NCBI GenBank assembly: GCA_016931515.1
Contig: JAFGEQ010000019.1
Coordinates: forward strand, 160,700 to 224,699
DNA length: 64,000 bases
Direction: 5' to 3'
Source of the DNA: a candidate division CSSED10-310 bacterium
Lineage (GTDB): Bacteria; CSSED10-310
Every line of letters starts with the position of its first letter. The first letter of the stretch is position 1. Positions 6,129-58,661 of the stretch are shown here, in pieces. The notes beneath the pieces are model-generated. The model worked only from the letters and a program-made list of their open reading frames with translations. It had not been told where the DNA came from and did no database searches. The position numbers were made by a program, and so were the translations under genes.

Positions 6129-7058
6129 TTATTTAACGGATTCTCTCTCTAACCCCTTACGAACATCTCTCCCTAAAAATAATATCTCGGGATCATTCGC
6201 AGTACCTCTAACCGTCACAGGTATATACATGTCTTCAGAGAAGGGTTGAGTATCGCTGATCAAGTGTATTCTGACATCCAGATCAAGCTTCGAATAGTCA
6301 GCGGGAATTTTCTGTTGAATCCGTCCGAGGATTCGAAGGATTGTATCCGGTGAATTTAAGCGGACATCATCGAATTGGATTTGATCATAGTTAAGCGTAC
6401 ATCGGGCTGAGAGAGAGTTAAATTCAGGGATATCAAACCCGGATACCATGTTCTGGGGGAAATCGAGATAAGTCTTTTCAACGATTAAATCGATTGGGCC
6501 TTCATAGCTGAAAGTCCGGGAAAAGTCTGACTTCAGCCTGGCAGTGCCGCTGGAAATACCGGTTTTGAGATAGAGACTCCGGTAATCGACCGAGAGAAGA
6601 GAAAGGTTGATCGCGTCCCATTGCAGATTGACATTCAGAACGGCATTTTCTTTCCTGATCGGAGACTCAAGGGATCCGGAAAATGTGCCATCATAAGCTT
6701 TTCCCGAGAATTGGAGGGATGAAATTCCTTCGAATAAACGTGTTGGTGCGATCCGGATGGACAGGTAGTCAGCGGATAAAAATGTTTTCCGATCGGACGT
6801 GTCTTGGGGCGATTGACCCATTGTTGTATCCGGAGTCTGTTGTACCGTTAACTGCTTTAGAGTTATGCTTCCCATCAGATTCATCTGCACGTCTGAGTAT
6901 TTGATGGCAATACCTGTTCGTTCCTCGATCTGACCGGTCAGATGTCTTACAAGGTATTCGGCCGGGTTGAATATCCACATCAATAGGTAGAAAAAGATAA
7001 TCGGAAGAACAATCCAACTGATTATTTTCCTTGAAATATAGCGGATGACGCGTTTCAC
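6129..7058 (-). CDS. Hypothetical membrane-anchored protein (N-terminal TM; GspN/AsmA-like?)
   Basis: 309 aa with a single N-terminal TM helix. It overlaps the glgA stop by 4 nt, suggesting translational coupling. No motif I can recognise. Confidence 0.5.
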   Translation of the reverse strand: MKRVIRYISRKIISWIVLPIIFFYLLMWIFNPAEYLVRHLTGQIEERTGIAIKYSDVQMNLMGSITLKQLTVQQTPDTTMGQSPQDTSDRKTFLSADYLSIRIAPTRLFEGISSLQFSGKAYDGTFSGSLESPIRKENAVLNVNLQWDAINLSLLSVDYRSLYLKTGISSGTARLKSDFSRTFSYEGPIDLIVEKTYLDFPQNMVSGFDIPEFNSLSARCTLNYDQIQFDDVRLNSPDTILRILGRIQQKIPADYSKLDLDVRIHLISDTQPFSEDMYIPVTVRGTANDPEILFLGRDVRKGLERESVK

Positions 7059-8524
7059 TCAGTCGCGTCCTGTTGCTGAAGCTTTTGATAGAGTTCCAGA
7101 TAACCTGTCGCCGAGCGTCTCCATGAGAAGTCCTGGGCCATTGCATCCCTCATAATTGCCCTCCACGTCTCCGGTTGTGCATATGCTGCCAACGCCCGGT
7201 CCAGAGTCGTCAGCAGGGATTCCGGCGTATAATTGTCAAACTTGAATCCGGTTCTCAAATCAGGATGATCCGGTTCGCAATCACAAACCGTGTCATCCAG
7301 TCCGCCCGTTCGATGAACGATAGGAATCGTTCCAAATCGGAGAGCATAGATCTGATTCAGCCCACATGGTTCGAATCTGGATGGTTTTAACAAAAAATCA
7401 GCACCTGCAATCATCCGCTGCGAGATATCCTGATCGAGATTGTGAATGAAAGCAAAATGACCGGGGTTCGTTTCGGCGAGATTAGTGAAAATATGGACAT
7501 AATTTCGATCACCAATCCCCTGAAGGATAACCCGAATACCTTTTTGAATCATCTCTGACAGACTGAATTCCAGCAGGTCCAATCCTTTCCGACTGTATAA
7601 AGGAGTTATCATTGCGAGGATCGGTCCATCTTCGGCGGCATCAAGTGATGATTCAGCGATGATTGCACGTTTGCAGACAGCCTTACCTGTCAGGTTGTCC
7701 GGAGAGTATTCAGCGGGGATGATTGGATTTCTGATAGGACTCCATCGAGTATAGTCAGCACCGTTGATGATTCCGTACAGTTTCTTTTGCATCGTCTGAA
7801 GAACGCCTTCGAGACCGCATCCGAACTCGGTTGTCTGTATTTCCCGGCAGTAACGCGGTGATACCGTGTTGATTGCATCCGAGTAAAGCAATCCCGCTTT
7901 TAACAGGTTGAGATCTCCGTAAAATTCGATCCCTTCCGACGTGAAAAACTCCCAGGGTAAACCGGTCAGATGCATATCGAATCGCCAGAACAAACCTTGG
8001 TACGCCAGATTGTGCACAGTAAAAAGGCTTTTAACATGCTCGAATGCCGGATGATTTTCCCTGAATAGTTTTAAATAGAGAGGTACCAGGCCGGTTTGCC
8101 AATCGTTGCAATGGATAATGGATGGTTTATCCGGGAGGTTGGGAAGCATCTCGATAACAGATCTGGCGAAGAAGATAAACCGCTCGGCATTGTCGGGATA
8201 GTCACCGCTGTCAGTTTTATATAATGATTCGCGATTAAAATAATCGGGTTGATCGACTAGATAGACGGGGAGTTGATCCAGGAAAGTGCGATATAGATCT
8301 GCGTGTTTATAACGATCACCAATGGGAATGGAAACGCGGGTGGCAATTCTGTCCTGTTTGTAACGATCGGGAATTAAACTGTAACGAGGTATTATTAGAG
8401 ACGCATGAATGCCCAGTTCAAGCAAGGCTTTGGGCAGAGCGGAAACCACGTCTCCCATATAGGATGTACGGGCAAGAGGCGTGGCTTCAGATGCGGCAAC
8501 TAAAATATGCAAAGGATGATTCAA
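7055..8524 (-). CDS. glgA: Glycogen/starch synthase (GT5, ADP-glucose type); TTG start
   Basis: 489 aa. N-terminus HILVAASEATPLARTSYMGDVVSALPKAL corresponds to the KTGGL region, and the typical GlgA C-terminal blocks are present (PSRFEPCGLNQIYALRFGTIPIVHRTGGLDDTV). Confidence 0.8.
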   Translation of the reverse strand: MNHPLHILVAASEATPLARTSYMGDVVSALPKALLELGIHASLIIPRYSLIPDRYKQDRIATRVSIPIGDRYKHADLYRTFLDQLPVYLVDQPDYFNRESLYKTDSGDYPDNAERFIFFARSVIEMLPNLPDKPSIIHCNDWQTGLVPLYLKLFRENHPAFEHVKSLFTVHNLAYQGLFWRFDMHLTGLPWEFFTSEGIEFYGDLNLLKAGLLYSDAINTVSPRYCREIQTTEFGCGLEGVLQTMQKKLYGIINGADYTRWSPIRNPIIPAEYSPDNLTGKAVCKRAIIAESSLDAAEDGPILAMITPLYSRKGLDLLEFSLSEMIQKGIRVILQGIGDRNYVHIFTNLAETNPGHFAFIHNLDQDISQRMIAGADFLLKPSRFEPCGLNQIYALRFGTIPIVHRTGGLDDTVCDCEPDHPDLRTGFKFDNYTPESLLTTLDRALAAYAQPETWRAIMRDAMAQDFSWRRSATGYLELYQKLQQQDATE

Positions 8525-8631: not shown

Positions 8632-9021
8632 ATGGAGAATACTAACAACAAGGCTTTACGGGGTCCCATATGTTGCATTGTGATGGTCGGTCTGCTGCTG
8701 ATAACGGGGTGTGCCTGTCATCATCCCAGAACACACGAGGATCTGATACGTTATGGCGTGACGCTTGCCGAGAATGGGTACTGGAATGAAGCCGGAATGC
8801 AGTGGCGCATGGTGCTGAATGAAGATCCGAACAATGTTGCTGCTCTCAATAACCTGGGTATAGCAGCGGAAGTTCTGGACAGTATTGACACGGCATCCCG
8901 TTTTCTGAACAAGGCGCAACACTTGAGACCTGATGATAAACAGATCAGAAAGAATATTAAATCCCTTCAGCAGAGATTGTCAGAAAAGGGAAGCGGAGCC
9001 GGTCATGAAGAAGACAAATAA
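8632..9021 (+). CDS. TPR-repeat lipoprotein
   Basis: Lipobox LITGCA after a hydrophobic segment, then TPR-like repeats (ALNNLGIAAEV...). The start is an internal Met of the listed ORF, chosen on the RBS AGGAGG. Confidence 0.6.
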   Translation: MENTNNKALRGPICCIVMVGLLLITGCACHHPRTHEDLIRYGVTLAENGYWNEAGMQWRMVLNEDPNNVAALNNLGIAAEVLDSIDTASRFLNKAQHLRPDDKQIRKNIKSLQQRLSEKGSGAGHEEDK

Positions 9022-9706
9022 CAGATTGTTTGTTGTGTCGATTTGTTGCCTGCCAATCATAATGTTGTTTTTTTGCTTGATGATCACCGGGTGTGCTTCA
9101 TATAAAAAGATACCAATCATATATCGGATGTCACCTGTTTTAACCGACCTTGGTTCACGCTCATTAGAAATAGGTACTTTTTATCAGAAAAGCAGCGGAT
9201 TTCAGGCGGTGACGGATACAATTCGTATTTTACAGCGGAAATTGGAGAAGGAGAAAGTCTTCCGGGACATCCATTATACTCTGGACGTCAAAACAATACC
9301 TGACGAATCAACAACCATTCAGGAAATGATGGACACGCTGGCCGCAACTGACTGGACGTCGATGTCTCAAGATGTTGATCTCCTGCTGACCGGCGCTGTT
9401 ATATATGTCGCCCGGGATAGATCGGGATACGATTCCGAATGGCAGTTGAATCAATATGGATACAGGGTTCCTAAAAAAGTCTACAAGGATCGCCTTTCCT
9501 TCGAACTGGAGCTGGGTTTATTGCTTGTTGAGCCTGGAAGCGGAACCGTTATTATTCGGGAAGTCTACGAAGATAAAGGGTTGGCCGAAGGAGCAGCGGA
9601 TGAGATCGCTGTATTTTACGAACTCATTGAAAAACAACTCAAGAAATTTCTTGATAACCTTCAGGGAAAAGAAATCAGGAGCAAACAATATCTGCTGTAC
9701 CGATGA
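9005..9706 (+). CDS. Hypothetical lipoprotein
   Basis: MKKTNNRLFVVSICCLPIIMLFFCLMITGCAS signal/lipobox. ATGA overlap with the previous gene. Confidence 0.55.
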   Translation: MKKTNNRLFVVSICCLPIIMLFFCLMITGCASYKKIPIIYRMSPVLTDLGSRSLEIGTFYQKSSGFQAVTDTIRILQRKLEKEKVFRDIHYTLDVKTIPDESTTIQEMMDTLAATDWTSMSQDVDLLLTGAVIYVARDRSGYDSEWQLNQYGYRVPKKVYKDRLSFELELGLLLVEPGSGTVIIREVYEDKGLAEGAADEIAVFYELIEKQLKKFLDNLQGKEIRSKQYLLYR

Positions 9707-19273: not shown

Positions 19274-20737
19274 TTAGATAAAACTGAACGTGACGCTGTC
19301 GACATCACCGATCAGCGTACCCGCTGGATCCAACATCCCTGCCCAGATTGTCACCGGACCGAAAACGGGCATGTTCTGCGGAACGAGAAACTGAAGTATC
19401 GACTGCTCTATATCGCTTTCGGGACCCACTATCAGGTATTTGGAGTCAACTGAGCCGGACCATGACGGCCAGAAGTAGAACCTGTCGCTGCCAAAACTCT
19501 CACCGATATCCAGAATTATATACTCATACAGACTGACTGATGAATCTCCCGGATTCGTCAGGGTTGCACTGCAGAGAAAATAGTTACCGGGAGAATAAGA
19601 TGATTCGTTGGTTGTTATCTCGATGGTGGGTGTACGATCTCCGGGTTCATAACCATAATAATTTTTATAAAATTCATTATAATATGCTTCCGCAATCACC
19701 TGATCGTGGATGAACAAGGTATTTTCATCGTTTGATACCTGGGCAGCCAGAGTCCAGTTATAGGAACCGGTTACAACTGATGCATCCGGTGATTGATAAT
19801 CAAAGACTGCGAATTTATGGTGGAGCAGATTTCCATGAGGTGACACCTCATCATCAAGTATAACGTCGATGTTATTGCTTTTTATGTAATCATAAACCGA
19901 ATAGCTGCTTTGTGCCTGAAGATCATCCATCACTCCCCGGACAGTGAGTCCGGTATTCAATACTTGAATCAGTTTTCCTGCAAGATTGGATTGAGTGAAG
20001 GTGTACATACAGAAGTGAATACTATTTTCAGTCTGATCGATCCGGTTCATTATGGCATCGTAAGCCGTATTCGGGAATTCGTCTTTTGTCGGGGAAAAAT
20101 AAAGATCCAGGTTAACACCGTTGCAGGTGTAATGATGATTTATCACTGTATTTTTATTGGTCGAAAAATGGCAATCACCATGCGGGCCGGATGTTCCACC
20201 CCACATCTCATTGAACTCGGTGAGATAGGCTTCTGCCAGGTCCTCGCATTCTATAGCAACTGCATTGTTATTATTGTATATGGAACCAGAATTGGTTGTG
20301 TTATAGGAACCGGTCCAGACTTTTATACCATCAACAACGCAAAATTTATTATGAACCTGGATACTGTCGTTACTCCAGCCGTCGCACGTTTCATCGATTA
20401 TATACAGACCTGCATCTTCCATACGCTGACATCCCGATAGTCCGCGGTAATTCGCATCGGTGATAATCCGAACATTATCAACACCCAGACGGGTAGCTGC
20501 CGCAATGAAAGCATCTGCCACAACCGAACGGTCAATCGAGTAAAAAGCGCCTGCTACTGTTTCGTTTGCACTGTTTATGAAGGCAGCCAATGCGGTGTCG
20601 ATTCCATTGGTGCTACTATGCTGGGCATCGTTAAAATATACTTCGAAGCCATCCGGAATTTCCGCCGCTGAAAGGTCACAGGTTCCTCCAATGATTGCCA
20701 TCGTGAGAAAGCATGCTATAAATGAGTGTTGTTTCAT
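19274..20737 (-). CDS. Secreted phospholipase D-family protein (two HKD motifs; phospholipase/nuclease-like)
   Basis: Two HxKxxxxD motifs (VHNKFCVVDGIKVWTGSYN and LLHHKFAVFDYQ...VTGSYNWT). N-terminal signal peptide MKQHSFIACFLTMAIIGGTCDLSAAE. The start is an internal Met with a strong RBS, AGCAGGAGG. Confidence 0.75.
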   Translation of the reverse strand: MKQHSFIACFLTMAIIGGTCDLSAAEIPDGFEVYFNDAQHSSTNGIDTALAAFINSANETVAGAFYSIDRSVVADAFIAAATRLGVDNVRIITDANYRGLSGCQRMEDAGLYIIDETCDGWSNDSIQVHNKFCVVDGIKVWTGSYNTTNSGSIYNNNNAVAIECEDLAEAYLTEFNEMWGGTSGPHGDCHFSTNKNTVINHHYTCNGVNLDLYFSPTKDEFPNTAYDAIMNRIDQTENSIHFCMYTFTQSNLAGKLIQVLNTGLTVRGVMDDLQAQSSYSVYDYIKSNNIDVILDDEVSPHGNLLHHKFAVFDYQSPDASVVTGSYNWTLAAQVSNDENTLFIHDQVIAEAYYNEFYKNYYGYEPGDRTPTIEITTNESSYSPGNYFLCSATLTNPGDSSVSLYEYIILDIGESFGSDRFYFWPSWSGSVDSKYLIVGPESDIEQSILQFLVPQNMPVFGPVTIWAGMLDPAGTLIGDVDSVTFSFI

Positions 20738-20810
20738 TCGGTACCTCCTGCTTATGATGTACCGTAGGATGAGTGTTTCGTCAAGATTACGAGGGCGACT
20801 GTAATGCATA

Positions 20811-22844
20811 TTGAGTGTCAGTGATAAGGAACAACATCACGTGAGAAATAATGTCAGAGATGCTGCATTTCTGGGCATGATAGCGCTCGTTCTCAGATTG
20901 GGTCATTTTTTCTTAATCGGAAACGATCCCGTTGCCGATATTCTGGTGCTCGATAGCTGGTCATACGATCGGATTGCGCGATTAATAATCTCGGGTGAAA
21001 TGCCGAATAAAGTGTATTTTCAGGCACCCTTCTATCCCTATTTTCTTGCTGCTTTTTATAAAATATTTAACGGTAGTATTGATTCCGTTCGTATTGCTCA
21101 AATCATTCTCGATACTATCTCAGCTGTTGCTGTTTTTCGAATTACACGTATCTTGTTCGGATGCCGTTCTGCATGGATTGCCGGGGTCTTTATGGCTGTG
21201 TATCCGGTATCTATATTTCAAAGTGGTCTGATACTGAAGACAACGTTGAATATCTTTTTTGCCGCATCGATGATCTGGTTGATTATCGAGAAACCCCGTT
21301 TCCCAGATAGCATTCGCATGATAATGCTGGGTCTCATAAGCGGATGGGCGGCTGCAACACAGGGATCCGTACTACTGCAACTGCCTATTCTTCCGATTTG
21401 GATTATTGTCGATAGTGGATGGCGATGTCTGCCGACATGGATCAAACGAATCGCGCTGTTTGGTCTGGGTTTGAGTATTGGTATCGGACCGTTCACATTA
21501 AGGAACTACCTTGTCAGCGGAAGATTCGTTCTTCTGACATCGCAGGGAGGAGCGAATTTTTATCTCGGTAACAGTCCATATTCCGATGGAACAAGCAAAC
21601 GACCGCCCAGGGTGAGGATGACGCCTGAATATGAAGAGGAGGATTTTCATCGGGAAGCAGAATATGCTGCAGGACAATCGCTCACACCTGAAGATGCGGG
21701 TCGGTACTGGCGGGATGAGGCTCTTAAATGGATGCGCGACCATCCTGGAGATGCATTGAAACTGGAGGCCAGGAAATTCGCCTTGTTTTGGAACCGGGTC
21801 GAAATACCCGACAACTATGATTTTGATTTTTACCGGCGCTATTCCTGGTTGATTCGGTATCCAAGATATCCATTCTGGATCATCGGCTCATTAGGATTGG
21901 CAGGAATGATATTTCTCACGGCATCATGGAGGAAAACCTGGTTCCTGTATGCATGGTCATCATCCTATTGTTTTATCTGGGTGATGTTCCATATTTATTC
22001 CAGGTACAGGTTACCGATGATTATCTTTCTGGCACCATTTGCCGCTGAATTCATCAGCAAAGTGATCGATTTGACTAAAACCGGTCGGTATACATCACTG
22101 GCGGGTCATTACCTGCTATGGATCGGCATTGTACTGTTCCAGGCAATTCCACTGACGGCCTATTCATCTGCTCAGCCCCTGTTCAATCTTGGTTCCGGTC
22201 TGACGCGTCTTGGCCGGCTGGATGAAGCCAGGACAGCTTATCTTGAGGCATTGGATGCATTGCCGGGCTATGAACCCGCAATGGTTAATCTGGGGAAATT
22301 GGCATGGTCTCAGGGTAATCCTGCTGAAGCGATTTTATGGTGGGAAAAAGCAATTGATACCAATCCAAAAGCCGTCGAAGCCCATTCCAATCTGGGTAGT
22401 TTGCTGGCCATGCAGGGAAAGATGATGGAAGCGAAAGGCCATTTCCTCGTCGCAACTCAAGAACAACCGTATTACTTCCTGGGGTGGCTGCATCTGGCTC
22501 AAACAGAAGAGTCTCTTCAAGAATATGAGAAGGCATTGGAAGCCTATAAGAAGGCCATTGATTTAAAACCTCATGATGTACAGGCTTTGTACGGCAGGGC
22601 AAAGGTGCTTGAAAAAATCGGTGGTGGGGAATCAGCACTGGCAGCATGGCGCATTTATTTAGACGAAGCGGACGACATGTTGGAAGAAAGAATCTACATT
22701 GACGAGGCAAAAACAAGAGTTGAATTGCTTTCGCATGAGATTCCTGTGGCCGGCGTGGAATCAATGGAAGGGGGATTAGCTCATTCGGATGAAACGTCGG
22801 ATCAGCGGGGACCGGCCGAACATCCATCGGATCGTATGCAGTAA
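20811..22844 (+). CDS. Polytopic membrane protein, GT-C fold (ArnT/PMT_2, GT39/83-like), with C-terminal TPR repeats
   Basis: Multi-TM N-terminal about 450 aa, then TPR repeats (AYLEALDALPGYEPAMVNLGKLAWSQGNPAEAILWWEKAIDTNPKAVEAHSNLG...). Confidence 0.65.
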   Translation: MSVSDKEQHHVRNNVRDAAFLGMIALVLRLGHFFLIGNDPVADILVLDSWSYDRIARLIISGEMPNKVYFQAPFYPYFLAAFYKIFNGSIDSVRIAQIILDTISAVAVFRITRILFGCRSAWIAGVFMAVYPVSIFQSGLILKTTLNIFFAASMIWLIIEKPRFPDSIRMIMLGLISGWAAATQGSVLLQLPILPIWIIVDSGWRCLPTWIKRIALFGLGLSIGIGPFTLRNYLVSGRFVLLTSQGGANFYLGNSPYSDGTSKRPPRVRMTPEYEEEDFHREAEYAAGQSLTPEDAGRYWRDEALKWMRDHPGDALKLEARKFALFWNRVEIPDNYDFDFYRRYSWLIRYPRYPFWIIGSLGLAGMIFLTASWRKTWFLYAWSSSYCFIWVMFHIYSRYRLPMIIFLAPFAAEFISKVIDLTKTGRYTSLAGHYLLWIGIVLFQAIPLTAYSSAQPLFNLGSGLTRLGRLDEARTAYLEALDALPGYEPAMVNLGKLAWSQGNPAEAILWWEKAIDTNPKAVEAHSNLGSLLAMQGKMMEAKGHFLVATQEQPYYFLGWLHLAQTEESLQEYEKALEAYKKAIDLKPHDVQALYGRAKVLEKIGGGESALAAWRIYLDEADDMLEERIYIDEAKTRVELLSHEIPVAGVESMEGGLAHSDETSDQRGPAEHPSDRMQ

Positions 22845-24179
22845 ACCTCCAGTGCGGATGTTGTTCATGATCGAAGCATGATAGTGCCTTGAAACGGCTT
22901 TCAATTTTTGAAAACTGTTTTCATTGACCAGTGAATCCGAATGGTCCGGTGCGCGAAGGGGATTTCTGACCCATTCGATCAAAGGCTTAGTAGTGGCAGA
23001 GACTGAAAAATGTGAATCGCAGTAAACGAATGCCCGTTCCGCATTCGATTTGATAAATTCCGGATTATGTATGGCTTCCGTAATCACACTAACAAGGCCC
23101 TCTGTATCCTCAGGCTGAAACGTTGATCCCAGGGCTTCCTGGCGAATAACTCGAGACAATTCGCATAATTCCGACGTGACAATCGGTAGTCTCATCTGCA
23201 TCCAATCCATCAGTCGATTCCGGCTCCCAAGAATGCCTTCGTAAGAAAACAGATCGATATTTATTCCGATATCTGATTCCTGGACACAGGCTGGAACCTC
23301 GTTAAACGGTATCCACCCACGCATAACAAAGCGATTCCGGAATTCAGACCCTTCGATTCGATTAAGAAAATGCTTGTATGTCAGTTCATCATGCGAGGCA
23401 ATTTCCCCGCCGGTACTGACAAAATAAACTTGCGGGAATCGCTGGAACACGCGTTCCAAGGCTTCAAACAACGTATTCACATCAGTCCACGTATTGTATC
23501 CGCCACTCCACAAAATGATAAATGCATCCCGAGGTACAAGGACACCTCGAAGCACCGGTTCGGACGGAGGGTCCAACGGCAGATTCTCATTCATTGAACA
23601 GGGTATAACCCTCGTAAACTGATAACCGGTTGTGGCACGGTTGAGTCGAAACCGTGTGCCGAGTTCGCCAATTGTTGCATATGATTGCGGATTTGAGACA
23701 ACTGACAGCACATCCGCTCTGTCGAGGATGGATTCTTCCTGTCTCCATAATTGCGAGATGTAGTAATTATCTCTGAATACCTGTGATTTGGTTTGAGCTT
23801 CAGCCATGACATGTCCAAAAAGATCTGCCCAGATAGGGCGGTCGGTTATCAGTTGTGTGGCCATATAAGATGGAAAGATTGTCGCTCCGACAATGCAATC
23901 CGGCTCGAAGTTGTCATGAATCCTTTGGAGCCAGGCGCTGTTTTCGAATATTTCCTGTCGGACCGAGTAGTAAATGAGATTGCCATGTTCTTCTGCCATG
24001 GCTGGTTCTGTCGTAACGTTTTTATAAGCAGCGAGGTGGCGACTGCAGATCAGGCAGAGTCGGTTCCCGTCCTCCAGCAGAGGGCGAACGAATTGCCAGG
24101 TTCGTTTACCAGGCGCCAGTGTACACGTATCGTTTTCAGTAGGCAGCGGACTCAATCCCAACACCAGAACACGTTTCAT
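22776..24179 (-). CDS. Glycosyltransferase, GT4-like (GT-B) domain; paralogue of the N-terminal half of the next gene
   Basis: N-terminus MKRVLVLGLSPLPTEN... parallels MTRLLVFGFAPLPFEN... in the next gene. Shared WSGGYNTWTD motif. Preferred start is the Met giving an ATGA overlap with the upstream gene. Confidence 0.65.
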   Translation of the reverse strand: MKRVLVLGLSPLPTENDTCTLAPGKRTWQFVRPLLEDGNRLCLICSRHLAAYKNVTTEPAMAEEHGNLIYYSVRQEIFENSAWLQRIHDNFEPDCIVGATIFPSYMATQLITDRPIWADLFGHVMAEAQTKSQVFRDNYYISQLWRQEESILDRADVLSVVSNPQSYATIGELGTRFRLNRATTGYQFTRVIPCSMNENLPLDPPSEPVLRGVLVPRDAFIILWSGGYNTWTDVNTLFEALERVFQRFPQVYFVSTGGEIASHDELTYKHFLNRIEGSEFRNRFVMRGWIPFNEVPACVQESDIGINIDLFSYEGILGSRNRLMDWMQMRLPIVTSELCELSRVIRQEALGSTFQPEDTEGLVSVITEAIHNPEFIKSNAERAFVYCDSHFSVSATTKPLIEWVRNPLRAPDHSDSLVNENSFQKLKAVSRHYHASIMNNIRTGGLLHTIRWMFGRSPLIRRFIRMS

Positions 24180-26530
24180 CCCATTAGTTTTCCTTTCAGG
24201 GTCTTGATACTCAACCATGCGATTCGATGGGATACGCAGATATAGGCGATGCATAGGGGTAACCACTGTTCACGGGGTGCGTACTTCCGGAACCATGTCA
24301 ACTCCGACCGAAGGAAACATCCCCAGAAGTATCTGAAAGTAAAATGCTTTAATATTAGTTTCAATCGGTTCCGATGGTACAATCGATAGAATCGGGGACT
24401 GAATTTGCCGGTGGATGTAGACTCATGGTGCAAGGCTTCTGCTCGATGGCAATACCGAATTCGATAACCTGACCGAGATGCCCGGATACAATAATCGAGT
24501 TCCTCATAATATGCGGGATGAAATCGGCGATCGAACAGACCGATCTCATCGATGAGTGATCGTTTGAAGGCAAAAACCGCTCCGGTCACATAATCAACAT
24601 CACGGTCCTGGTCATATTGGCCCGTATCAATTTGACCTGCGCCATAATGATCGGTTAAACCATTTTCGTGCAGAATACCACCTGCGTGTTGAAGGGTTTT
24701 TCCATCGATATTATAGATTTTGCATCCTGCGATTGCGATTGTGTCGTCTTCAAGAACTTCAATCAGTTCTTTCAAAAGACCGGGCATCATCACCGCATCC
24801 TGATTTAGAAGAAAGATAACATCTCCTTTGGTCGCCAGGATACCCTGATTGACGCCACCGGTAAATCCTTGATTTTTTTTGTTTCGGATTAAATGAATAT
24901 CGGAAAAATTCGTCTCGATGAACTCCGGTGTCCCATCTCTAGATCCGTTATCGACAACCACACACTCCACATGTGGGTAATCTTGATCCTTTGCCGAACG
25001 AATACAGGCTTCGATGTCCTTCACACCGTTCCATGTAACCACGACAATACTCACGAGTGCTTGTTCCGGCAGCTTAAGCGGCCGCCCGTTGAGAGCGGGT
25101 CTATTTACAGGGAGCTGATTATATGGATTCTCCGCCGGGTTTCGTTTGCGAAGTTCACTTTCGAGATGTCGAATATAATGTTCCAGCGATTGGAGATGCC
25201 GGTTTTTCCCATCCAACTCGCTCTCAAGTTTTCTAATGTAGGATTGGTCACTCCATTGAAGCGGATCTTTATGAGCCAGTGTCTTTCTTTTTTGTCTGTG
25301 ATCCGGTGCTGTGACCGGATTCGACAGCCAGTTCTGGAATGGTTGAGTTGTTGCATCGAAGGAAAGGTGTTTCAGACCATAATCACGGGCTCTTTTTCCA
25401 GTTTCAGCGACTGCCTCCGGATCCTTTGTGAGAGCGAGTATTTTACTCGCGAGAGCTTCTGGATTGCCAAGGGGGTAACTGTATGCCAGTCCTCTTTCCG
25501 GGAGATCCAGCGAGAGCTCACACAACTCGCCGATAAGTGATGGCAGCCCGGCTCGCAGCCAGTCAAGCACACGATTTTTGCTGCCAAATACTCCCTCATA
25601 CATATATCGATCAATATTGATTCCGATATCCGCTTCAAAATAATAGTTATGGACATCCTCTTTGGGAACCCATCCTTTCAGGACAAATCGACTGGCAAAA
25701 TGCGATTTCTTTACCCGGTTTACGAAGGCGGGATACGTGATTTCGTCGTGACCGTCAATCTGCCCGCCTGTGCTGACGAACCAAATATCTGAATTCTGGG
25801 CCATTGCCTGTTCCAGTCCATCGACCAGCGTTTCTGTGTCCGTCCAGGTATTAAAACCTCCGGACCACAAAACGATGAAAGCATTGTCCGGCACTTCGCG
25901 ACCTCGGATAACGCATTTATCGTGTGTGTATAAGGTGGATTCCATTGCACAGGGAATAGGATCACAGAAAGAATAGCCGGTAGTCGCTGCGGTTAATCGT
26001 CCGATTAAACCCAATTCTCCGACAGTTGCTGATGCCTGGGCGCGGGAGACCGTAGAAAACTTATCTCCGGATTGTAGAGCCAGAAGGGCATGCCGTCGAA
26101 AATGATCCAGGAATTCGTCGTTCTGATAACGGTATGCTTTTGCTTGAGCTTCAGCCATCACATGCCCAAATAAATCGAACCAGATCGGACTGTCGGTACG
26201 AATATGGGACAGTGGAGTACCGGCAAAAACAGTTGCTACAAGTATCGCATCCGGTTTGAATTGGTCGTGAATTTCCTGGATTCGATGTGTATTGGCAAAT
26301 TCACTGTCCGACATATTGTAATAGGAAAATCCATGCTCATGACTGAATACTTCCGGAAATGTCTCGGCAGGATAGATGAATGGAATCCGATTCGCGATCA
26401 GGGTTACATCGGCTGATCCTGTGCTCAGCAGTGGCTTGATAAACTGCCAGGCGCGAATTCCGGGACCGAAGTTTTTCAGTGTGTTTTCAAAGGGCAATGG
26501 TGCAAAACCGAATACTAATAGACGTGTCAT
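24176..26530 (-). CDS. Bifunctional glycosyltransferase: N-terminal GT4-like domain + C-terminal GT2 (family 2, DxD) domain
   Basis: The C-terminal half has a GT2 signature (VSIVVVTWNG...VVDNGSRDGT...NKKNQGFTGGVNQG...LLNQDAV). The N-terminal half is paralogous to 22776..24179. Confidence 0.7.
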   Translation of the reverse strand: MTRLLVFGFAPLPFENTLKNFGPGIRAWQFIKPLLSTGSADVTLIANRIPFIYPAETFPEVFSHEHGFSYYNMSDSEFANTHRIQEIHDQFKPDAILVATVFAGTPLSHIRTDSPIWFDLFGHVMAEAQAKAYRYQNDEFLDHFRRHALLALQSGDKFSTVSRAQASATVGELGLIGRLTAATTGYSFCDPIPCAMESTLYTHDKCVIRGREVPDNAFIVLWSGGFNTWTDTETLVDGLEQAMAQNSDIWFVSTGGQIDGHDEITYPAFVNRVKKSHFASRFVLKGWVPKEDVHNYYFEADIGINIDRYMYEGVFGSKNRVLDWLRAGLPSLIGELCELSLDLPERGLAYSYPLGNPEALASKILALTKDPEAVAETGKRARDYGLKHLSFDATTQPFQNWLSNPVTAPDHRQKRKTLAHKDPLQWSDQSYIRKLESELDGKNRHLQSLEHYIRHLESELRKRNPAENPYNQLPVNRPALNGRPLKLPEQALVSIVVVTWNGVKDIEACIRSAKDQDYPHVECVVVDNGSRDGTPEFIETNFSDIHLIRNKKNQGFTGGVNQGILATKGDVIFLLNQDAVMMPGLLKELIEVLEDDTIAIAGCKIYNIDGKTLQHAGGILHENGLTDHYGAGQIDTGQYDQDRDVDYVTGAVFAFKRSLIDEIGLFDRRFHPAYYEELDYCIRASRSGYRIRYCHRAEALHHESTSTGKFSPRFYRLYHRNRLKLILKHFTFRYFWGCFLRSELTWFRKYAPREQWLPLCIAYICVSHRIAWLSIKTLKGKLMG

Positions 26531-27675
26531 GGTTTGTGTTGTCCGGATACTATTTGAGCGAGCAGTTGAGTGAATTTTGCCTGTAGATCCGTGATAATCC
26601 TATCTTTTTCTGTGAGAGTTGTTTCCAAATGCAAAGCATAAGATTCGAGTTGATCATAAACGGCCGATTCCGATTGGGCCCGAATCGCTTCCTCGGCCAG
26701 CAGCCTGATTCTTTCGGTTAGATCGTTGTTTGATATCTCTAACATGTTGTTGCGATCCCGATACTGATCCAGTTCTTTTTGAATTTTCCTGGCGTGATCT
26801 TCCAGGTAATGAAATGACTGTGAGATACTTTTATGTTCAGCTTCCACGCGGCGAACGTATTGATGGATGGTTTGCAGTGCCTCTTGAATTCGCTCAAAAG
26901 ATTCAACGGTGTCTGAATTGATGTAATCCTCTTCCGGCAGTGACAGATGGTCATTCGAGAATTCCGGATGCTCATGATGACGGCTTGCGATGATAAAGGT
27001 TCTATAGGCACTATGTTCATTCCCGGTAATGATGGGTAGGTGATTGATGCATCGGAATAAGTTGTCTCGCATTTTCGATGTTTCCGGCAGTAATCCAAGA
27101 GTGTAATCCACAACATGCGCCAAGGCCCAGAGTTGCAGGGGGAATGTATGATAAACTCTGATAAAAGGGAACTTGAGAGCAAGAAAATCGATGATGGTTT
27201 TCCAGTCTATCAGCCCGTTTTCCCGATGTTCATCCAAGAACCGGTAACTTTCTCCAGCAAATTTCAGGTGGATTGCCGCCAAATATGTCTCATGGGCTAC
27301 CGTTTTCGGTTTATCCATGGGAAAGGAAATTATGGCTGTGTCACTCGTAATTCTGTCGATTTCCTGCAGAAGCAAGTTTCGATTGAAGGAATCAACATGC
27401 TCTAGTACATCCAGGCAGACCGTAAAATCGAAACAACCGGATGGGAAAGGTGTCCTTTCCGCCATGCTCTGAACGAATCGCCCGGAAACTCCTTTTCGCG
27501 ATATATCGGACTGTATGACCGTCTGATCATCCAGAAAGAGGGTCAAGATGTTTTCAGTGGAGCCCAGATCGAGTATTCTCCGCTCTCCGAATCCATCGGG
27601 GCAGAGGGCCCTGAGATATCGGGCGGTGAAGAAAAATCGATTGAATCGGTCGGGTGCCGTTTGGGTCAAGGTCAT
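26527..27675 (-). CDS. Class I SAM-dependent methyltransferase with C-terminal coiled-coil
   Basis: RILDLGSTEN...FDFTVCLDVLEHV methyltransferase motifs I and post-I. The C-terminal about 120 aa are heptad-rich. 4-nt overlap with the downstream GT gene. Confidence 0.65.
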   Translation of the reverse strand: MTLTQTAPDRFNRFFFTARYLRALCPDGFGERRILDLGSTENILTLFLDDQTVIQSDISRKGVSGRFVQSMAERTPFPSGCFDFTVCLDVLEHVDSFNRNLLLQEIDRITSDTAIISFPMDKPKTVAHETYLAAIHLKFAGESYRFLDEHRENGLIDWKTIIDFLALKFPFIRVYHTFPLQLWALAHVVDYTLGLLPETSKMRDNLFRCINHLPIITGNEHSAYRTFIIASRHHEHPEFSNDHLSLPEEDYINSDTVESFERIQEALQTIHQYVRRVEAEHKSISQSFHYLEDHARKIQKELDQYRDRNNMLEISNNDLTERIRLLAEEAIRAQSESAVYDQLESYALHLETTLTEKDRIITDLQAKFTQLLAQIVSGQHKP

Positions 27676-27786
27676 AACTTGATTATTCTAGCAGAAATAT
27701 GGATACTTTTGCATCAGTAATGCGTCGCAGATGACGTAGCCGGCATTATTGCCGTTTAAGACTCAGAATGTTGTAGTGGAGGGTGC

Positions 27787-28206
27787 ATGATGAAGAATTG
27801 GATGTATATATTGATGACTCTGGTTATGGTTTCAGGTTTTGACGTTTTCGCTGAGGAGACAAAAACCCTTGATTCGGGTTGGATCGACGTAACGCGAGAA
27901 GTTGCCGCTAATCCAGCTGATGCCGGCGGATGGGTCAAAGACGAGACGGGTAAAGTCTTCCGATCATCGGATGGTAATTTTATCAAGATTCAGCATGCGA
28001 CATTCGGAGTGTTCAAGGTTGATCTTCCCGGTGCCAAGGTTTTTCGGATTGACGGCGATAAGGACGTCCTGCAGGACGGATCCAGTCTGTTACAACGCGA
28101 TGCGGGCCAGACCTTGGTTATCAAATTGAAAGACTACAAATTCAAGGTGCAATTTACAGAAAAAATTGAAGGCATGAAATCAATACCCGGTATCAAGGGG
28201 ATGTAA
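27787..28206 (+). CDS. Small secreted hypothetical protein
   Basis: 139 aa with an N-terminal signal peptide (MMKNWMYILMTLVMVSGFDVFA/EE). Confidence 0.45.
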   Translation: MMKNWMYILMTLVMVSGFDVFAEETKTLDSGWIDVTREVAANPADAGGWVKDETGKVFRSSDGNFIKIQHATFGVFKVDLPGAKVFRIDGDKDVLQDGSSLLQRDAGQTLVIKLKDYKFKVQFTEKIEGMKSIPGIKGM

Positions 28207-28306
28207 AAACGAGTTTTTTTATGAATCACCGGATTCGAATCATGGAGACCGGATCGGTTCGGGCGTCGTTATTGAGCAGATGGAACGGATATGATAGTGT
28301 GAAAAT

Positions 28307-41186: not shown

Positions 41187-43412
41187 TCAGGCGGCCCGAC
41201 GCAATAGGAAACTTCCGGAAATTAGTATGAGCCCTCCGAAGAAGAATCCCGTCATCGGGATACCCGCCACCGGTAGAAAGAATATGGCGACTATCAGTGC
41301 TGAGACTGCCGCTCCGGCGAGGTCCATAAAATAGAGACACGGCAGGTGATCGGGATACTCTCTGGAAGCGAGAACGAATTGGCTTCCGCACAAGGCGGCA
41401 CAAAGCAGGGACGATAAGAAAATGATTTCCACAGGGATGTCCCTTCTTTGGTTGGTTGTGATCATCAGGCCAATTAACAGGAGACCGAGACCGAACTGGA
41501 CCAGGGCGATTCTACTGGGTCTGATCGATGTTAGACGACCGGTTAATGCGCTGCCGATCGACAATCCAAGGGCGAAGAGACCGATCAGCAGACCTGCTTC
41601 ATGATACAGAGCGCCTGTTCGGAGTTGCAGCATGAACATCAGCAAAATTTGGGTGATCATTGCGACTGAACCGGTGATGCTGACTGCTAGCATTACTTTT
41701 GCTTTCCGGCGATTCAGGAGGAAATGCAGGGGGATGGCGATGAACAGCGTTATGAGGGCGACACTTCGAATATGGGTCAACCATAAATGGGATCGTGAAT
41801 TTATGGAGGATTGCCACTGGGAGTGCCATAAGTTCAGATAAACGGGTAAGATAAGCGGTCGAAGATCGGTAGAACAATCCGAGAACGTATCTTCATCCAG
41901 GGCGGATTGAAATGTCTGCAATGCCTGAGGACTCATTGTATAGGGGAGATATGCGTCGATGGGATACAGGGAGGAAATTCCAGATTGAGCAATCCGGTGG
42001 AGAATCGTCTCAACCGGTACAGGACCGGTGGTATCTGGATGGATGAAAATATGAATTGTATCTCCGGGGATAACAGTCATGGCATCATGTGAAAATACGC
42101 TCCGGATTGATCGAAATACCATGCCGGCAAAACGAACCTGTTCGGGACTCATCATGTTCTCAGATCCGGAAATGGTCATTCCGAAAATTCCGTTTGTTGC
42201 CAGAACCCGCTCGATCTCACGGTAAAAATCTATGGAGTAATAACGAGAGGCATTCAATGAAAGGGGTAGGGGTGCACATGAGATGATGATATCAAACCGG
42301 TGATCCGGTGCCGAATCCAGGGCGATGCGGGGATCCTGAGAATGAAAACGTAAATTCGTCATCTCATCCCGGGGTAGAACTCTGGCAAGATCTTCAGGTT
42401 TCAGGCGAGTTAACGGGAACATATCCAGTGCCACTGCCTCAACATCTGCTCCCGGAAATTGACCGGTTATTGTTGCCATGTGAGTCCAGACTCCATCCAG
42501 GAGGAGAATATTAACTGGATTTGGATGCAACGCCAGGGCGACTACAGCAGTTTCTTCGTCAGGACGGGTTATCGCACCATGTGTGATTAATGTTCTATTG
42601 TAAAAAAGACTCAAACCATCCTGGTATTCGATCAGGTGCCAGCGCCCGTAAACGGAATCAAAAACCTGGCGGATAGTATGACCGGGCCAGGCCGATGCAT
42701 CAAGGGTCAGGCTGAGATGCTGTCCATAATGAACTAATGTAGTACCGATCATCAGTATCGGCACAACAGAAAGTATTGAGCTGTTAAGCAGTTTAAAACG
42801 AACTGAAACGCCGTGCATCCCAATTCCGGCAAGTAGAGGTATTCCCATGATCAGAACCACGCCTGCCAGTATCAGAGTGCTGGATGAAAGTGGATGGATC
42901 AGATGGGTCAGGACAGCACCCGTCAGAGCACCGAGTGATTCAGATATGTAGATAATGCCCGGGTGGTTGGAACCCGAGCGACGGATCAGGTTAACAGTCA
43001 GCGCAAACAGCATTCCGTTTAACAAACAGAAAGGGATCATTGTTATCAAAGGGATTATGGTGAAATTCCGGATTCCCGGTATTTCTCCGGGTGTCGACTT
43101 CAACCATGCCGGAGCGGCCCGGAACGCAGCCAGAGTGAAAGGTAACAGCACGGCGAGGAGCAGTGGAAGATTCCGGATTATTCGCGGTGACAGCGACAGT
43201 CGACTCCCAGCAAAACTACCTGCGCCTGTTGCGATCAGCCAGAGACCCAGAACGACAGCTATGCAGAGTTCGTTGTTTCTGCCGGCAGCCAGGCTTTCCT
43301 GCAGAAGCAGTATCTGGAGTGTTGTGCCGAAATATCCTGCCGCTGCCGCGATGAGGCAGGATTGTACGCTCAATGAGGAAGGTTTCACTTTATCACTCCA
43401 TCTGTGATACAA
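41187..43412 (-). CDS. Fused polytopic membrane domain / spermidine-synthase-like (PABS) protein
   Basis: About 12 TM helices at the N-terminus and further TMs at the C-terminus flank a spermidine-synthase-like Rossmann domain (LLLDGVWTHM..., FDIIISCAP). Confidence 0.65.
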   Translation of the reverse strand: MYHRWSDKVKPSSLSVQSCLIAAAAGYFGTTLQILLLQESLAAGRNNELCIAVVLGLWLIATGAGSFAGSRLSLSPRIIRNLPLLLAVLLPFTLAAFRAAPAWLKSTPGEIPGIRNFTIIPLITMIPFCLLNGMLFALTVNLIRRSGSNHPGIIYISESLGALTGAVLTHLIHPLSSSTLILAGVVLIMGIPLLAGIGMHGVSVRFKLLNSSILSVVPILMIGTTLVHYGQHLSLTLDASAWPGHTIRQVFDSVYGRWHLIEYQDGLSLFYNRTLITHGAITRPDEETAVVALALHPNPVNILLLDGVWTHMATITGQFPGADVEAVALDMFPLTRLKPEDLARVLPRDEMTNLRFHSQDPRIALDSAPDHRFDIIISCAPLPLSLNASRYYSIDFYREIERVLATNGIFGMTISGSENMMSPEQVRFAGMVFRSIRSVFSHDAMTVIPGDTIHIFIHPDTTGPVPVETILHRIAQSGISSLYPIDAYLPYTMSPQALQTFQSALDEDTFSDCSTDLRPLILPVYLNLWHSQWQSSINSRSHLWLTHIRSVALITLFIAIPLHFLLNRRKAKVMLAVSITGSVAMITQILLMFMLQLRTGALYHEAGLLIGLFALGLSIGSALTGRLTSIRPSRIALVQFGLGLLLIGLMITTNQRRDIPVEIIFLSSLLCAALCGSQFVLASREYPDHLPCLYFMDLAGAAVSALIVAIFFLPVAGIPMTGFFFGGLILISGSFLLRRAA

Positions 43413-44606: not shown

Positions 44607-45191
44607 ATGCAGAACGAATTTTCACCGTCGCCACGGGATACATTGCTGAGCAAATTTGTGCTGGTTCTTCCATTCCTGATTGTCGCGATTATTGCTGGAT
44701 TTCTTTGGGCGGAATGGCGAAACAGACCGGCACGCCCGACTGAAGTAACCTGGACAGGGGCTCTTAAGGAGAATGCGAGGATCGAGAGGGAGTTTAACCT
44801 GGTGTTCCCGGTGATGTCGGGTGAATGGCTGACTGAGAAGCGGATCATCAGGGGATTTGAATCGGAGCGCCAGGAAATCCAGAGTTGCCTGGAAGCTTTT
44901 ATGGTTGGACCCAAAGATGCAAATAACCGGTTGCCGGGCGCGGAGCGAATAACTGTTGACGGTGTGTATCTTGATGGCAGACAAGGTCTTATCGTCGATC
45001 TGAAACCTCTCGTTCATCCACTTAATCTGGGCGGTATCCAAGCAGAAATAGCCTTTATTGGAGCACTGACGCAGACCGTCCGCATCAATTTTCCTGATCT
45101 GAATTGGATGATAATTCTGGTCGATGGTGAAATGCGTGAAACTTTGGCTGGACACATCGATATACGGGATCCGTTTTTACTGAATGGTTGA
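44607..45191 (+). CDS. GerMN domain protein (amidase-associated)
   Basis: N-terminal TM helix, then a GerMN-like C-terminus (VDGVYLDGRQGLIVDL...MIILVDGEMRETLAGHIDI). Immediately downstream of the amidase gene. Confidence 0.6.
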   Translation: MQNEFSPSPRDTLLSKFVLVLPFLIVAIIAGFLWAEWRNRPARPTEVTWTGALKENARIEREFNLVFPVMSGEWLTEKRIIRGFESERQEIQSCLEAFMVGPKDANNRLPGAERITVDGVYLDGRQGLIVDLKPLVHPLNLGGIQAEIAFIGALTQTVRINFPDLNWMIILVDGEMRETLAGHIDIRDPFLLNG

Positions 45192-53106: not shown

Positions 53107-53232
53107 GTCCATCTGTCGGAATTATGCTTCGAAATGCCGGTACAGATTGACAACATAAGGGTTTAAATGGTACCTTTAGCATTTGTTTTCGTGACTAAAA
53201 CTATATGTCCGGTTGAATAAAACAGGCGATTT

Positions 53233-56208: not shown

Positions 56209-56268
56209 TACAGTCGAATCGTTATTGGATAGGGACATATCGGCATTTGCAGCGGGAGGGCAGATAAC

Positions 56269-58647: not shown

Positions 58648-58661
58648 TTTAAGGAGAGACC

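Follow-up and report, generated by a model that had tools for sequence, protein, structure and literature searches.

A glycan-biosynthesis operon with a stalked methyltransferase in candidate division CSSED10-310: a possible polymerase-terminator module

Organization of the operon

We analyzed a 64,000-nucleotide (nt) stretch of DNA from a candidate division CSSED10-310 bacterium (assembly GCA_016931515.1, contig JAFGEQ010000019.1, positions 160,700 to 224,699 of the forward strand), referred to below as the window, and studied in it three minus-strand genes that almost certainly constitute a glycan-biosynthesis operon. The first gene (26527..27675) is an open reading frame (ORF) of 382 amino acids (aa) and encodes a class I S-adenosylmethionine (SAM)-dependent methyltransferase (MT) with a coiled coil (Pfam Methyltransf_11, 32.8 bits, cut-off 21.2). 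The second (24176..26530; 784 aa) is bifunctional, with a GT4-like glycosyltransferase (GT) domain, a coiled coil, and a GT2 domain on one polypeptide. The third (22776..24179; 467 aa, Glyco_trans_1_4) encodes a stand-alone, paralogous GT4-like protein. A preliminary description, made from the DNA letters and conceptual translations, had proposed the same three products, and both the Pfam searches and the predicted folds bear it out.

The genes are joined by 4-nt ATGA overlaps of stop and start codons, as had also been described. Direct reading gives ...cca-tga/ATG-ACA at 26530-26527 for the junction between the MT and fusion genes (26527..26530) and ...gga-tga/ATG-AAA at 24179-24176 for that between the fusion and the second GT4-like gene (24176..24179). 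The mechanical ORF of the latter gene begins at a GTG at 24266; the ATG at 24179 (MKRVLVLG...) was taken as the true start because the resulting N-terminus agrees with those of all homologues. The three genes are translationally coupled, and 4-nt overlaps recur in the homologous loci L001 (both junctions) and L005 (the fusion/GT4-like junction). A scan of positions 22300-28300 for promoters and terminators gave counts at or below the shuffle expectation and no usable signal. None of the three proteins scored above the cut-off of an NCBIfam equivalog, the matches to the mycofactocin proteins MftF and MftM falling far short of it.

The methyltransferase and its stalk

The AlphaFold2 (AF2) model of the MT (predicted local distance difference test score, pLDDT, 93.7) consists of a class I fold at residues 1-231 (26983..27675, minus strand) and a single unbroken helix of 123 residues at 254-376 (26548..26916, minus strand). 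The helix shows a heptad pattern, and the family profile matches solved coiled-coil proteins along the same stretch, so that the long coiled-coil tail seen earlier in the translation of this leading gene is upheld. At a rise of 1.5 Å per residue the stalk would measure ~18 nm.

The top Foldseek matches of the model were generic class I methyltransferases, including the sugar O-methyltransferases AtmM and RebM. A search of the PDB with the MT profile likewise found AtmM (3e-9) and RebM (1.5e-8) among other methyltransferases (2e-9 to 1e-4). That these closest structures belong to small-molecule sugar O-methyltransferases would suit an explanation in which the operon serves general glycan decoration. 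The enzymes would then add a few sugars to a glycan linked to a lipid or a protein and O-methylate internal residues, the product would leave by another route (Wzx/Wzy, or completion in the periplasm by this genome's numerous GT-C enzymes), and the coiled coils would act as a scaffold or oligomerizer, not as a ruler. We regard this explanation, the main rival of the model proposed below, as unlikely, though by no means negligible.

The wider MT family does not sit easily with it. A word-indexed homologue search with the MT returned only three proteins. An exhaustive HMMER scan was then made with the MT domain and found 1468 representatives at E<=1e-3, 214 of them at E<=1e-10. The closest relatives are proteins of 350-550 aa composed of an MT and a coiled coil, while remoter ones reach 800-2000 aa and carry an MT, then a coiled coil, and then GT2, GT4, or WsaF-type modules. 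General decoration leaves these repeated fusions of MT, coiled coil, and GT unexplained.

The same holds for the length of the stalk, which in the CSSED10-310 genomes is ~105, 130, 215, or 275 residues. In these genomes the length of the MT domain (~240 aa) is constant, as is that of the fusion protein (777-801 aa in all complete loci). Both ends of the stalk are conserved and its middle is variable and repetitive. A ~2.6-fold variation beside conserved stalk ends and catalytic domains is not accounted for by a mere scaffold. The long stalks of L001 (6049..7656) and L008 (4021..5625) contain degenerate tandem LE-x-x-Y-x-x-LE repeats, for example LETAYKKLETA, LESAYRDL, LESEYRDL, and LETEYKKLESAY. 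Such repeats suggest that stalk length may change by gain and loss of repeat units.

The fusion protein and a shared linker motif

The fusion protein begins with the first copy of the GT4-like GT-B domain (residues 1-412; 25295..26530, minus strand) and ends with a GT2 domain of GT-A type (residues 493-707; 24410..25054, minus strand) and a basic/aromatic C-terminal region that continues to 24179. The GT2 domain is complete, as had been claimed, covering positions 1-167 of the 168 of PF00535 (E=3e-31, 109 bits against a cut-off of 23.3), and PF13641 matches as well (E=4e-23). As read from the translation, the DxD site that had been ascribed to it is NQD (LLNQDAV), with a single Asp at the expected place, and DNGSRDG and EELDY are also present. 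The nearest solved sequences are the GT2 modules of chondroitin and heparosan synthases, over the first ~115 residues only.

Between the two domains lies a short coiled-coil linker (residues ~430-463; 25142..25243, minus strand), recognized by a heptad scan and a linker alignment. Its motif, H-x-x-x-L-E-x-Y-I-R-H-L-E (25151..25195), is conserved in 10 CSSED10-310 genomes and in five fusions from other lineages. A similar motif, YDQLESYALHLETTL, is present in the MT coiled coil, close to its end (26614..26658, minus strand), where the hidden Markov model (HMM) of the fusion linker matches the MT stalk with 7.3 bits, a score that 0.05% of 2100 composition-matched shuffles reach. Across the MT proteins, 12 of 21 score at levels that at most 0.2% of 2100 such shuffles reach. 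This recurrence supports a physical coupling of the two proteins, in which the common L-E-x-Y-x-x-H-L-E coiled-coil motif may serve to dock the MT stalk on the fusion protein.

The GT4-like family

The stand-alone GT4-like protein comprises a GT-B domain (residues 1-412) and a helical basic/aromatic tail (residues 422-466; 22782..22916, minus strand). Its AF2 model, built on 73 homologues, has a pLDDT of 93.4. The best 50 of 565 Foldseek matches (E<=1e-3) are all GT-B proteins, mostly of GT4 with some of GT5 and GT20. They include the retaining enzymes sucrose-phosphate synthase (SPS), MshA, glycogen synthase, BshA, ManT, HepE, GlgM, and OtsA, at 10-16% identity; for SPS, MshA, BshA, and ManT the Foldseek E-values are 2e-17 to 2e-13 and the target-normalized TM-scores 0.69-0.76. 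The family profile also recognizes the C-terminal domain of SPS 6kih (E=1e-8). Single-sequence searches of the PDB gave nothing significant for either the GT4-like protein or the MT, and profile and fold searches were needed. Judged by these structural neighbors, the enzymes would be of the retaining type and use a nucleotide-sugar donor.

With the retaining GT4 structures (SPS 6kih, MshA 3c4q, BshA, and mycobacterial ManT 7qsg) the family thus has the two-Rossmann GT-B fold in common. It differs from them in the merely 10-16% identity, in having no NCBIfam equivalog, in a C-terminal module of coiled coil and amphipathic helix, and in motifs of its own: PLPxEN, RTWQF, FGHxMAEAQ, WSGGYNTWTD, and GINID...YE..LGS.NR are invariant.

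In species-representative genomes the family occurs in 342 stretches. All carriers among the 79 examined belong to uncultured lineages (metagenome- or single-cell-derived), and they represent CSSED10-310, Chloroflexota, Acidobacteriota, Actinomycetota (Humimicrobiia and Hakubella), Omnitrophota, Sumerlaeota, and Aminicenantes. A GT2 match is also present in 74 of the 82 fetched loci, where the GT2 gene usually lies directly before or after the GT4-like gene, in many cases overlapping it by 4 nt, or is fused to it. The GT4-like and GT2 proteins are a unit conserved across phyla.

The tail of the family has two parts. The first is a coiled coil, which ranges from none to >135 residues in the database homologues and reaches ~160 in two Omnitrophota loci. 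The second is a terminal aromatic/basic amphipathic helix, such as YRIYSYLKIIKRKI and KMWRLWMAYLAVRRWLL, or TIRWMFGRSPLIRRFIR in the protein of the window, and its character is consistent with membrane association. In some members (P0028, P0030, P0040, P0064, and P0097; L012, L058, L064, and L077) the coiled-coil tail is replaced by a non-coiled C-terminal extension of ~190 residues. The extensions of the five listed proteins have a conserved ...NLSYHW... segment in common, no Pfam match was found in the three that were scanned, and the extension could be a beta-rich binding module. Genes for radical SAM/SPASM or B12-binding radical SAM proteins recur beside the GT4-like gene in Omnitrophota and Acidobacteriota (L055, 8001..10892; L020, 9536..11239; several in L084), and in L055 a 963-aa fusion joins GT4-like domain, coiled coil, and radical SAM/SPASM.

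Some of these properties would also fit the synthesis of a membrane glycolipid or small glycoconjugate, for which the GT4-like and GT2 enzymes would add successive sugars to a lipid acceptor, in the manner of GT4 glycolipid synthases, and the MT would modify the head group, with no polymer being made. The closest matches of the GT-B fold are GT4 enzymes with small acceptors (SPS, MshA, BshA, and GlgM), the C-terminal amphipathic helices suggest peripheral membrane binding, and some lineages possess a bare cassette of the two genes, as in L002, where GT2 and GT4-like genes stand with no other glycan genes nearby. On the other hand, a long stalk would have no evident purpose on a small-molecule methyltransferase, and elsewhere the pair is embedded in large multi-GT clusters. 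Together with the exporter linkage described below, this makes the glycolipid explanation very unlikely in our judgment.

Age of the GT4-like duplication

The two GT4-like copies of the window are 43% identical over 414 aa (E=6e-119 in a pairwise alignment). The alignment called for in the preliminary description is thus significant, and the peptide strings that it had quoted from the N-terminal regions are right. WSGGYNTWTD, said to be present in both, is the motif of the short copy; in the long copy one substitution makes it WSGGFNTWTD. Copy 2 exceeds the Pfam Glyco_trans_1_4 cut-off of 27 with 39.6 bits. The fused copy 1 stays under it, at 23.0 bits, and keeps all the family-invariant residues.

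At the DNA level, positions 23793-23819 and 26144-26170 agree in 25 of 27 bases, and none of 100 shuffles gave a match. This string, which had been taken as a sign of tandem duplication, is real, but it encodes the invariant FGHVMAEAQ motif and is simply the most conserved part of the protein. The rest of the DNA has minimal similarity, the best blastn segment being 63 nt at 79%. Over 411 aligned codons, identity at codon positions 1, 2, and 3 is 55, 65, and 32%, which means saturation of the synonymous sites. Every complete CSSED10-310 locus fetched (L001, L004, L005, L007-L011, and L033) has both copies. In a neighbor-joining tree without support values, each copy forms its own clade with all sampled CSSED10-310 genomes, and each clade is nearer to other phyla than to the other copy.

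These data point to ancient paralogy: the duplication, or a double acquisition, is older than the sampled CSSED10-310 radiation. The tandem duplication that had been proposed holds as paralogy, and as a recent event it is rejected by the third-codon identity and the separate clades. The same results bear on a fuller form of that proposal, according to which a recent tandem duplication made the second GT4-like gene and the operon produces a methylated glycoconjugate together with a convergent GT39-like/TPR enzyme encoded next to it. The paralogy and the shared 27-nt string speak in its favor; given the age of the copies and the distribution of the convergent gene (see below), we consider it the least probable of the explanations discussed here.

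Linkage of homologues to Wzm/Wzt transporters and a proposed polymerase-terminator model

In seven loci from other phyla, homologues of the operon genes lie beside genes of the Wzm/Wzt polysaccharide exporter. Three Acidobacteriota loci (L014, L019, and L020) have the order wzm, wzt (ABC_tran plus Wzt_C), MT-coiled-coil homologue, and GT2 homologue, with the GT4-like gene 4 kb downstream, and their GT2 proteins are close to that of the window (E=1e-79 in L020 and 4e-80 in L019). Two Omnitrophota loci (L082 and L055) read wzm, wzt (Wzt_C, in two matched stretches), GT2, and GT4-like, with no MT, and here the GT4-like protein itself carries a coiled coil of ~155-160 residues. In the Chloroflexota loci L037 and L058, wzm is followed by a wzt without Wzt_C, and there is no long coiled coil. 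Direct exporter linkage in three phyla argues against a small glycolipid product. The co-occurrence of long coiled coils with Wzt_C transporters in the five informative loci is in turn not explained by general glycan decoration.

In the O-antigens of Klebsiella and E. coli, a terminating enzyme with an extended coiled coil is characteristic of this type of ABC-transporter-dependent assembly, and the carbohydrate-binding module (CBM) of Wzt binds the terminal cap, so that only terminated chains are exported (PMC11231755). The finding of Wzm/Wzt-linked homologues with a cap-binding module and of variable coiled coils thus favors a polymerase-terminator system over a generic pathway of methylated glycans. 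The preliminary description had suggested the synthesis of a methylated glycan or glycoconjugate; its glycan operon stands, and its general methylation pathway gives way to this more specific reading, whose main clues (the GT4-like and GT2 pair conserved across phyla, the varying coiled coils, and the exporter linkage of homologues) it had not noted. We propose, with about an even chance of being right, that the operon is the polymerase-terminator module of an ABC-transporter-dependent system, analogous to WbdD/WbdA and not homologous to WbdD.

According to this model, the glycan would be assembled at the cytoplasmic face of the membrane by a membrane-associated module, as in Wzm/Wzt-dependent pathways. 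The retaining-type GT-B (GT4-like) and GT-A (GT2) domains would extend a lipid-linked sugar chain; the two would form the catalytic core, here fused via a short coiled coil and supplemented by the old paralogue. The stalked SAM-dependent MT would methylate the non-reducing end once the chain is long enough to reach it. This methyl cap would stop polymerization and thereby set the chain length, and, by analogy with the characterized cap-dependent systems, may mark the glycan for export.

The closest functional precedent is WbdD/WbdA of E. coli O9a/O8 (= Klebsiella O3/O5), in which a terminating methyltransferase(-kinase) on a coiled-coil ruler acts with a multi-GT4 polymerase and export proceeds through Wzm/Wzt-CBM. 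As in WbdD, an extended coiled coil follows the catalytic domain in the MT of the window, and its ~18 nm compare with a WbdD stalk of ~200 Å (PMC5082667). The polymerase GTs are likewise on separate proteins, and the Acidobacteriota homologues adjoin wzm and a wzt with Wzt_C. Unlike WbdD, the MT of the window has no specific sequence or fold relation to that protein, no kinase domain, and no C-terminal membrane helix, and unlike WbdA the putative polymerase is GT4-like plus GT2, not GT4 plus GT4, with no transporter in cis.

A second precedent is given by ORF6 of Klebsiella O7 and WbbB of O12 (PMC11231755), single proteins composed of terminator, coiled coil, and polymerase GT modules. The 784-aa fusion resembles them in its layout of catalytic module, coiled coil, and GT2, as do many distant members of the MT family with their order of MT, coiled coil, and GT2, GT4, or WsaF module. 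In such systems the modules are flexibly spread among polypeptides (PMC11231755). In contrast to ORF6 and WbbB, the fusion starts with a GT4-like GT-B domain in place of an MT/kinase or GT99, and it has a short coiled coil of ~35 residues. The long stalk belongs to the MT, a protein of its own, which gives the system two coiled-coil proteins.

Several observations weigh against the polymerase-terminator model. The MT could equally decorate internal residues. WbdD (4ax8 and 4azs) is reached by its profile at an E-value of only ~0.01, in a 60-residue part of the SAM-binding core that such enzymes share, and does not appear among the best 50 Foldseek matches of the MT model. Pfam and NCBIfam found no kinase domain in the MT, and there is no room for one between the end of the fold at 231 and the start of the helix at 254. 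A C-terminal amphipathic membrane helix was not found in the MT of the window, which ends in ...LLAQIVSGQHKP; in the Acidobacteriota homologues, by contrast, the C-terminus is a basic amphipathic stretch, HRLVRVLRRLLGR. For lack of specific similarity, kinase domain, and terminal membrane helix, membership of the MT in the WbdD family was rejected. The coiled coils themselves were called from the helix of a monomer AF2 model and from a simple heptad score of our own making.

The transporter evidence, moreover, comes from distant phyla and from seven loci only. Pfam searches of 46 ORFs of the 64-kb window found no Wzm/Wzt, no flippase, and no initiating phosphoglycosyltransferase; tblastn with a Wzm/Wzt pair found none in the window, and in ~10 CSSED10-310 loci no wzm or wzt gene lies within +-8-10 kb of the operon. 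The lack of a transporter in cis in any CSSED10-310 locus would be expected under general decoration, as would the settings of some homologues elsewhere: in Omnitrophota L084 the pair stands among Wzy_C, YfhO, radical SAM, and many GT genes, and in Actinomycetota it is part of a seven-GT cluster with an EamA protein.

Genes around the operon

A membrane protein with GT-C and TPR domains is encoded on the plus strand at 20811..22844, convergent to the operon, and its 3' end overlaps that of the GT4-like gene by 69 nt. It belongs to the GT-C superfamily (PMT_2, PF13231, 44.5 bits, E=2.5e-11; TPR families), with no match to the GT39 PMT model at E<=0.01. In L001 and L004-L011 the gene likewise adjoins the operon, synteny extending over the whole region. 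Its partnership with the operon is confined to 10 CSSED10-310-type loci (6 of them with the membrane domain), and no such gene was found beside the GT4-like family in the sampled loci of other phyla. Of the convergent GT39-like/TPR gene described previously, the PMT_2 and TPR domains and the retention within the phylum stand, and neither the GT39 assignment nor a link beyond CSSED10-310 does; a conserved partnership with the operon was rejected, and any role of the gene in the pathway is conjectural. The retention within the phylum speaks for, and the restriction to 10 syntenic loci and the PMT_2 match in place of a GT39 PMT against, the proposal of a methylated glycoconjugate made together with this enzyme.

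A secreted-looking PLD-family protein with two PLDc_2 domains is encoded at 19274..20809 on the minus strand. It is divergent from the GT-C/TPR gene, and the maximal ORFs are one base apart; the gene stays beside the cluster throughout CSSED10-310. With the PLD ORF so near, the TTG start of the GT-C/TPR gene has probably been placed too far upstream; the GT-C/TPR orthologues are 641-652 aa long, and the ORF of the window gives 677 aa.

At the other end of the window (50968..64000, plus strand) are four successive large genes for GT-C-like membrane proteins: 50968..53106 (a weak PMT_2 match), 53233..56208 (PMT_2 and an NHL propeller), 56269..58647 (DUF2298), and an ORF of >1779 aa from ~58662 that runs off the window end (PMT_2, DUF2298, and NHL). 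Together with the GT-C/TPR gene they suggest a heavy investment in periplasmic glycosylation, and they would be in keeping with general glycan decoration completed by GT-C enzymes.

The window otherwise encodes housekeeping functions: BamA, Skp, LpxD, LpxA, glycogen synthase, Mur ligases, Lon, ClpP, trigger factor, succinyl-CoA synthetase, and 2-oxoacid:ferredoxin oxidoreductase. The presence of BamA, Skp, LpxD, and LpxA indicates a diderm bacterium with lipid A. The glycogen/starch synthase (Glyco_transf_5 plus Glycos_transf_1; 7055..8524, minus strand), 14 kb from the operon, is another GT-B enzyme and has no bearing on the operon. ORFs without a Pfam match are 6129..7058 (minus strand, 309 aa), 8933..9706 (plus, 257 aa), 41187..43412 (minus, 741 aa), 44607..45191 (plus, 194 aa), and 27787..28206 (plus, 139 aa). 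The last of these diverges from the operon and keeps its position in L001, and the N-terminus of its product resembles a signal peptide.

Implications

The type of system proposed here is known, and its enzymes belong to common superfamilies. New are the arrangement of a separate MT stalk, a GT-B/coiled-coil/GT-A fusion, and a paralogue; a widespread uncharacterized GT-B family with coiled coil and amphipathic tail; and a natural series of stalk lengths. It is conceivable, though distinctly unlikely, that the GT4-like family represents an unrecognized, phylum-spanning class of coiled-coil-mounted glycan-assembly proteins, which in some lineages would itself be the ruler-bearing terminator. CSSED10-310 would then have a two-stalk system in which the MT ruler docks on the polymerase via the L-E-x-Y-x-x-H-L-E code and stalks of 105-275 residues tune the length of the surface glycan between species.

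If the polymerase-terminator model is false, the locus is an ordinary, neatly organized glycan operon. If it is true, the coiled-coil ruler and terminator logic of the E. coli and Klebsiella O-antigens would extend to a candidate phylum without a cultured member, and a conserved uncharacterized GT-B family of 342 species genomes would gain a working function. A test set for the ruler model would then be at hand in the stalks themselves, whose lengths differ naturally and whose ends are conserved.

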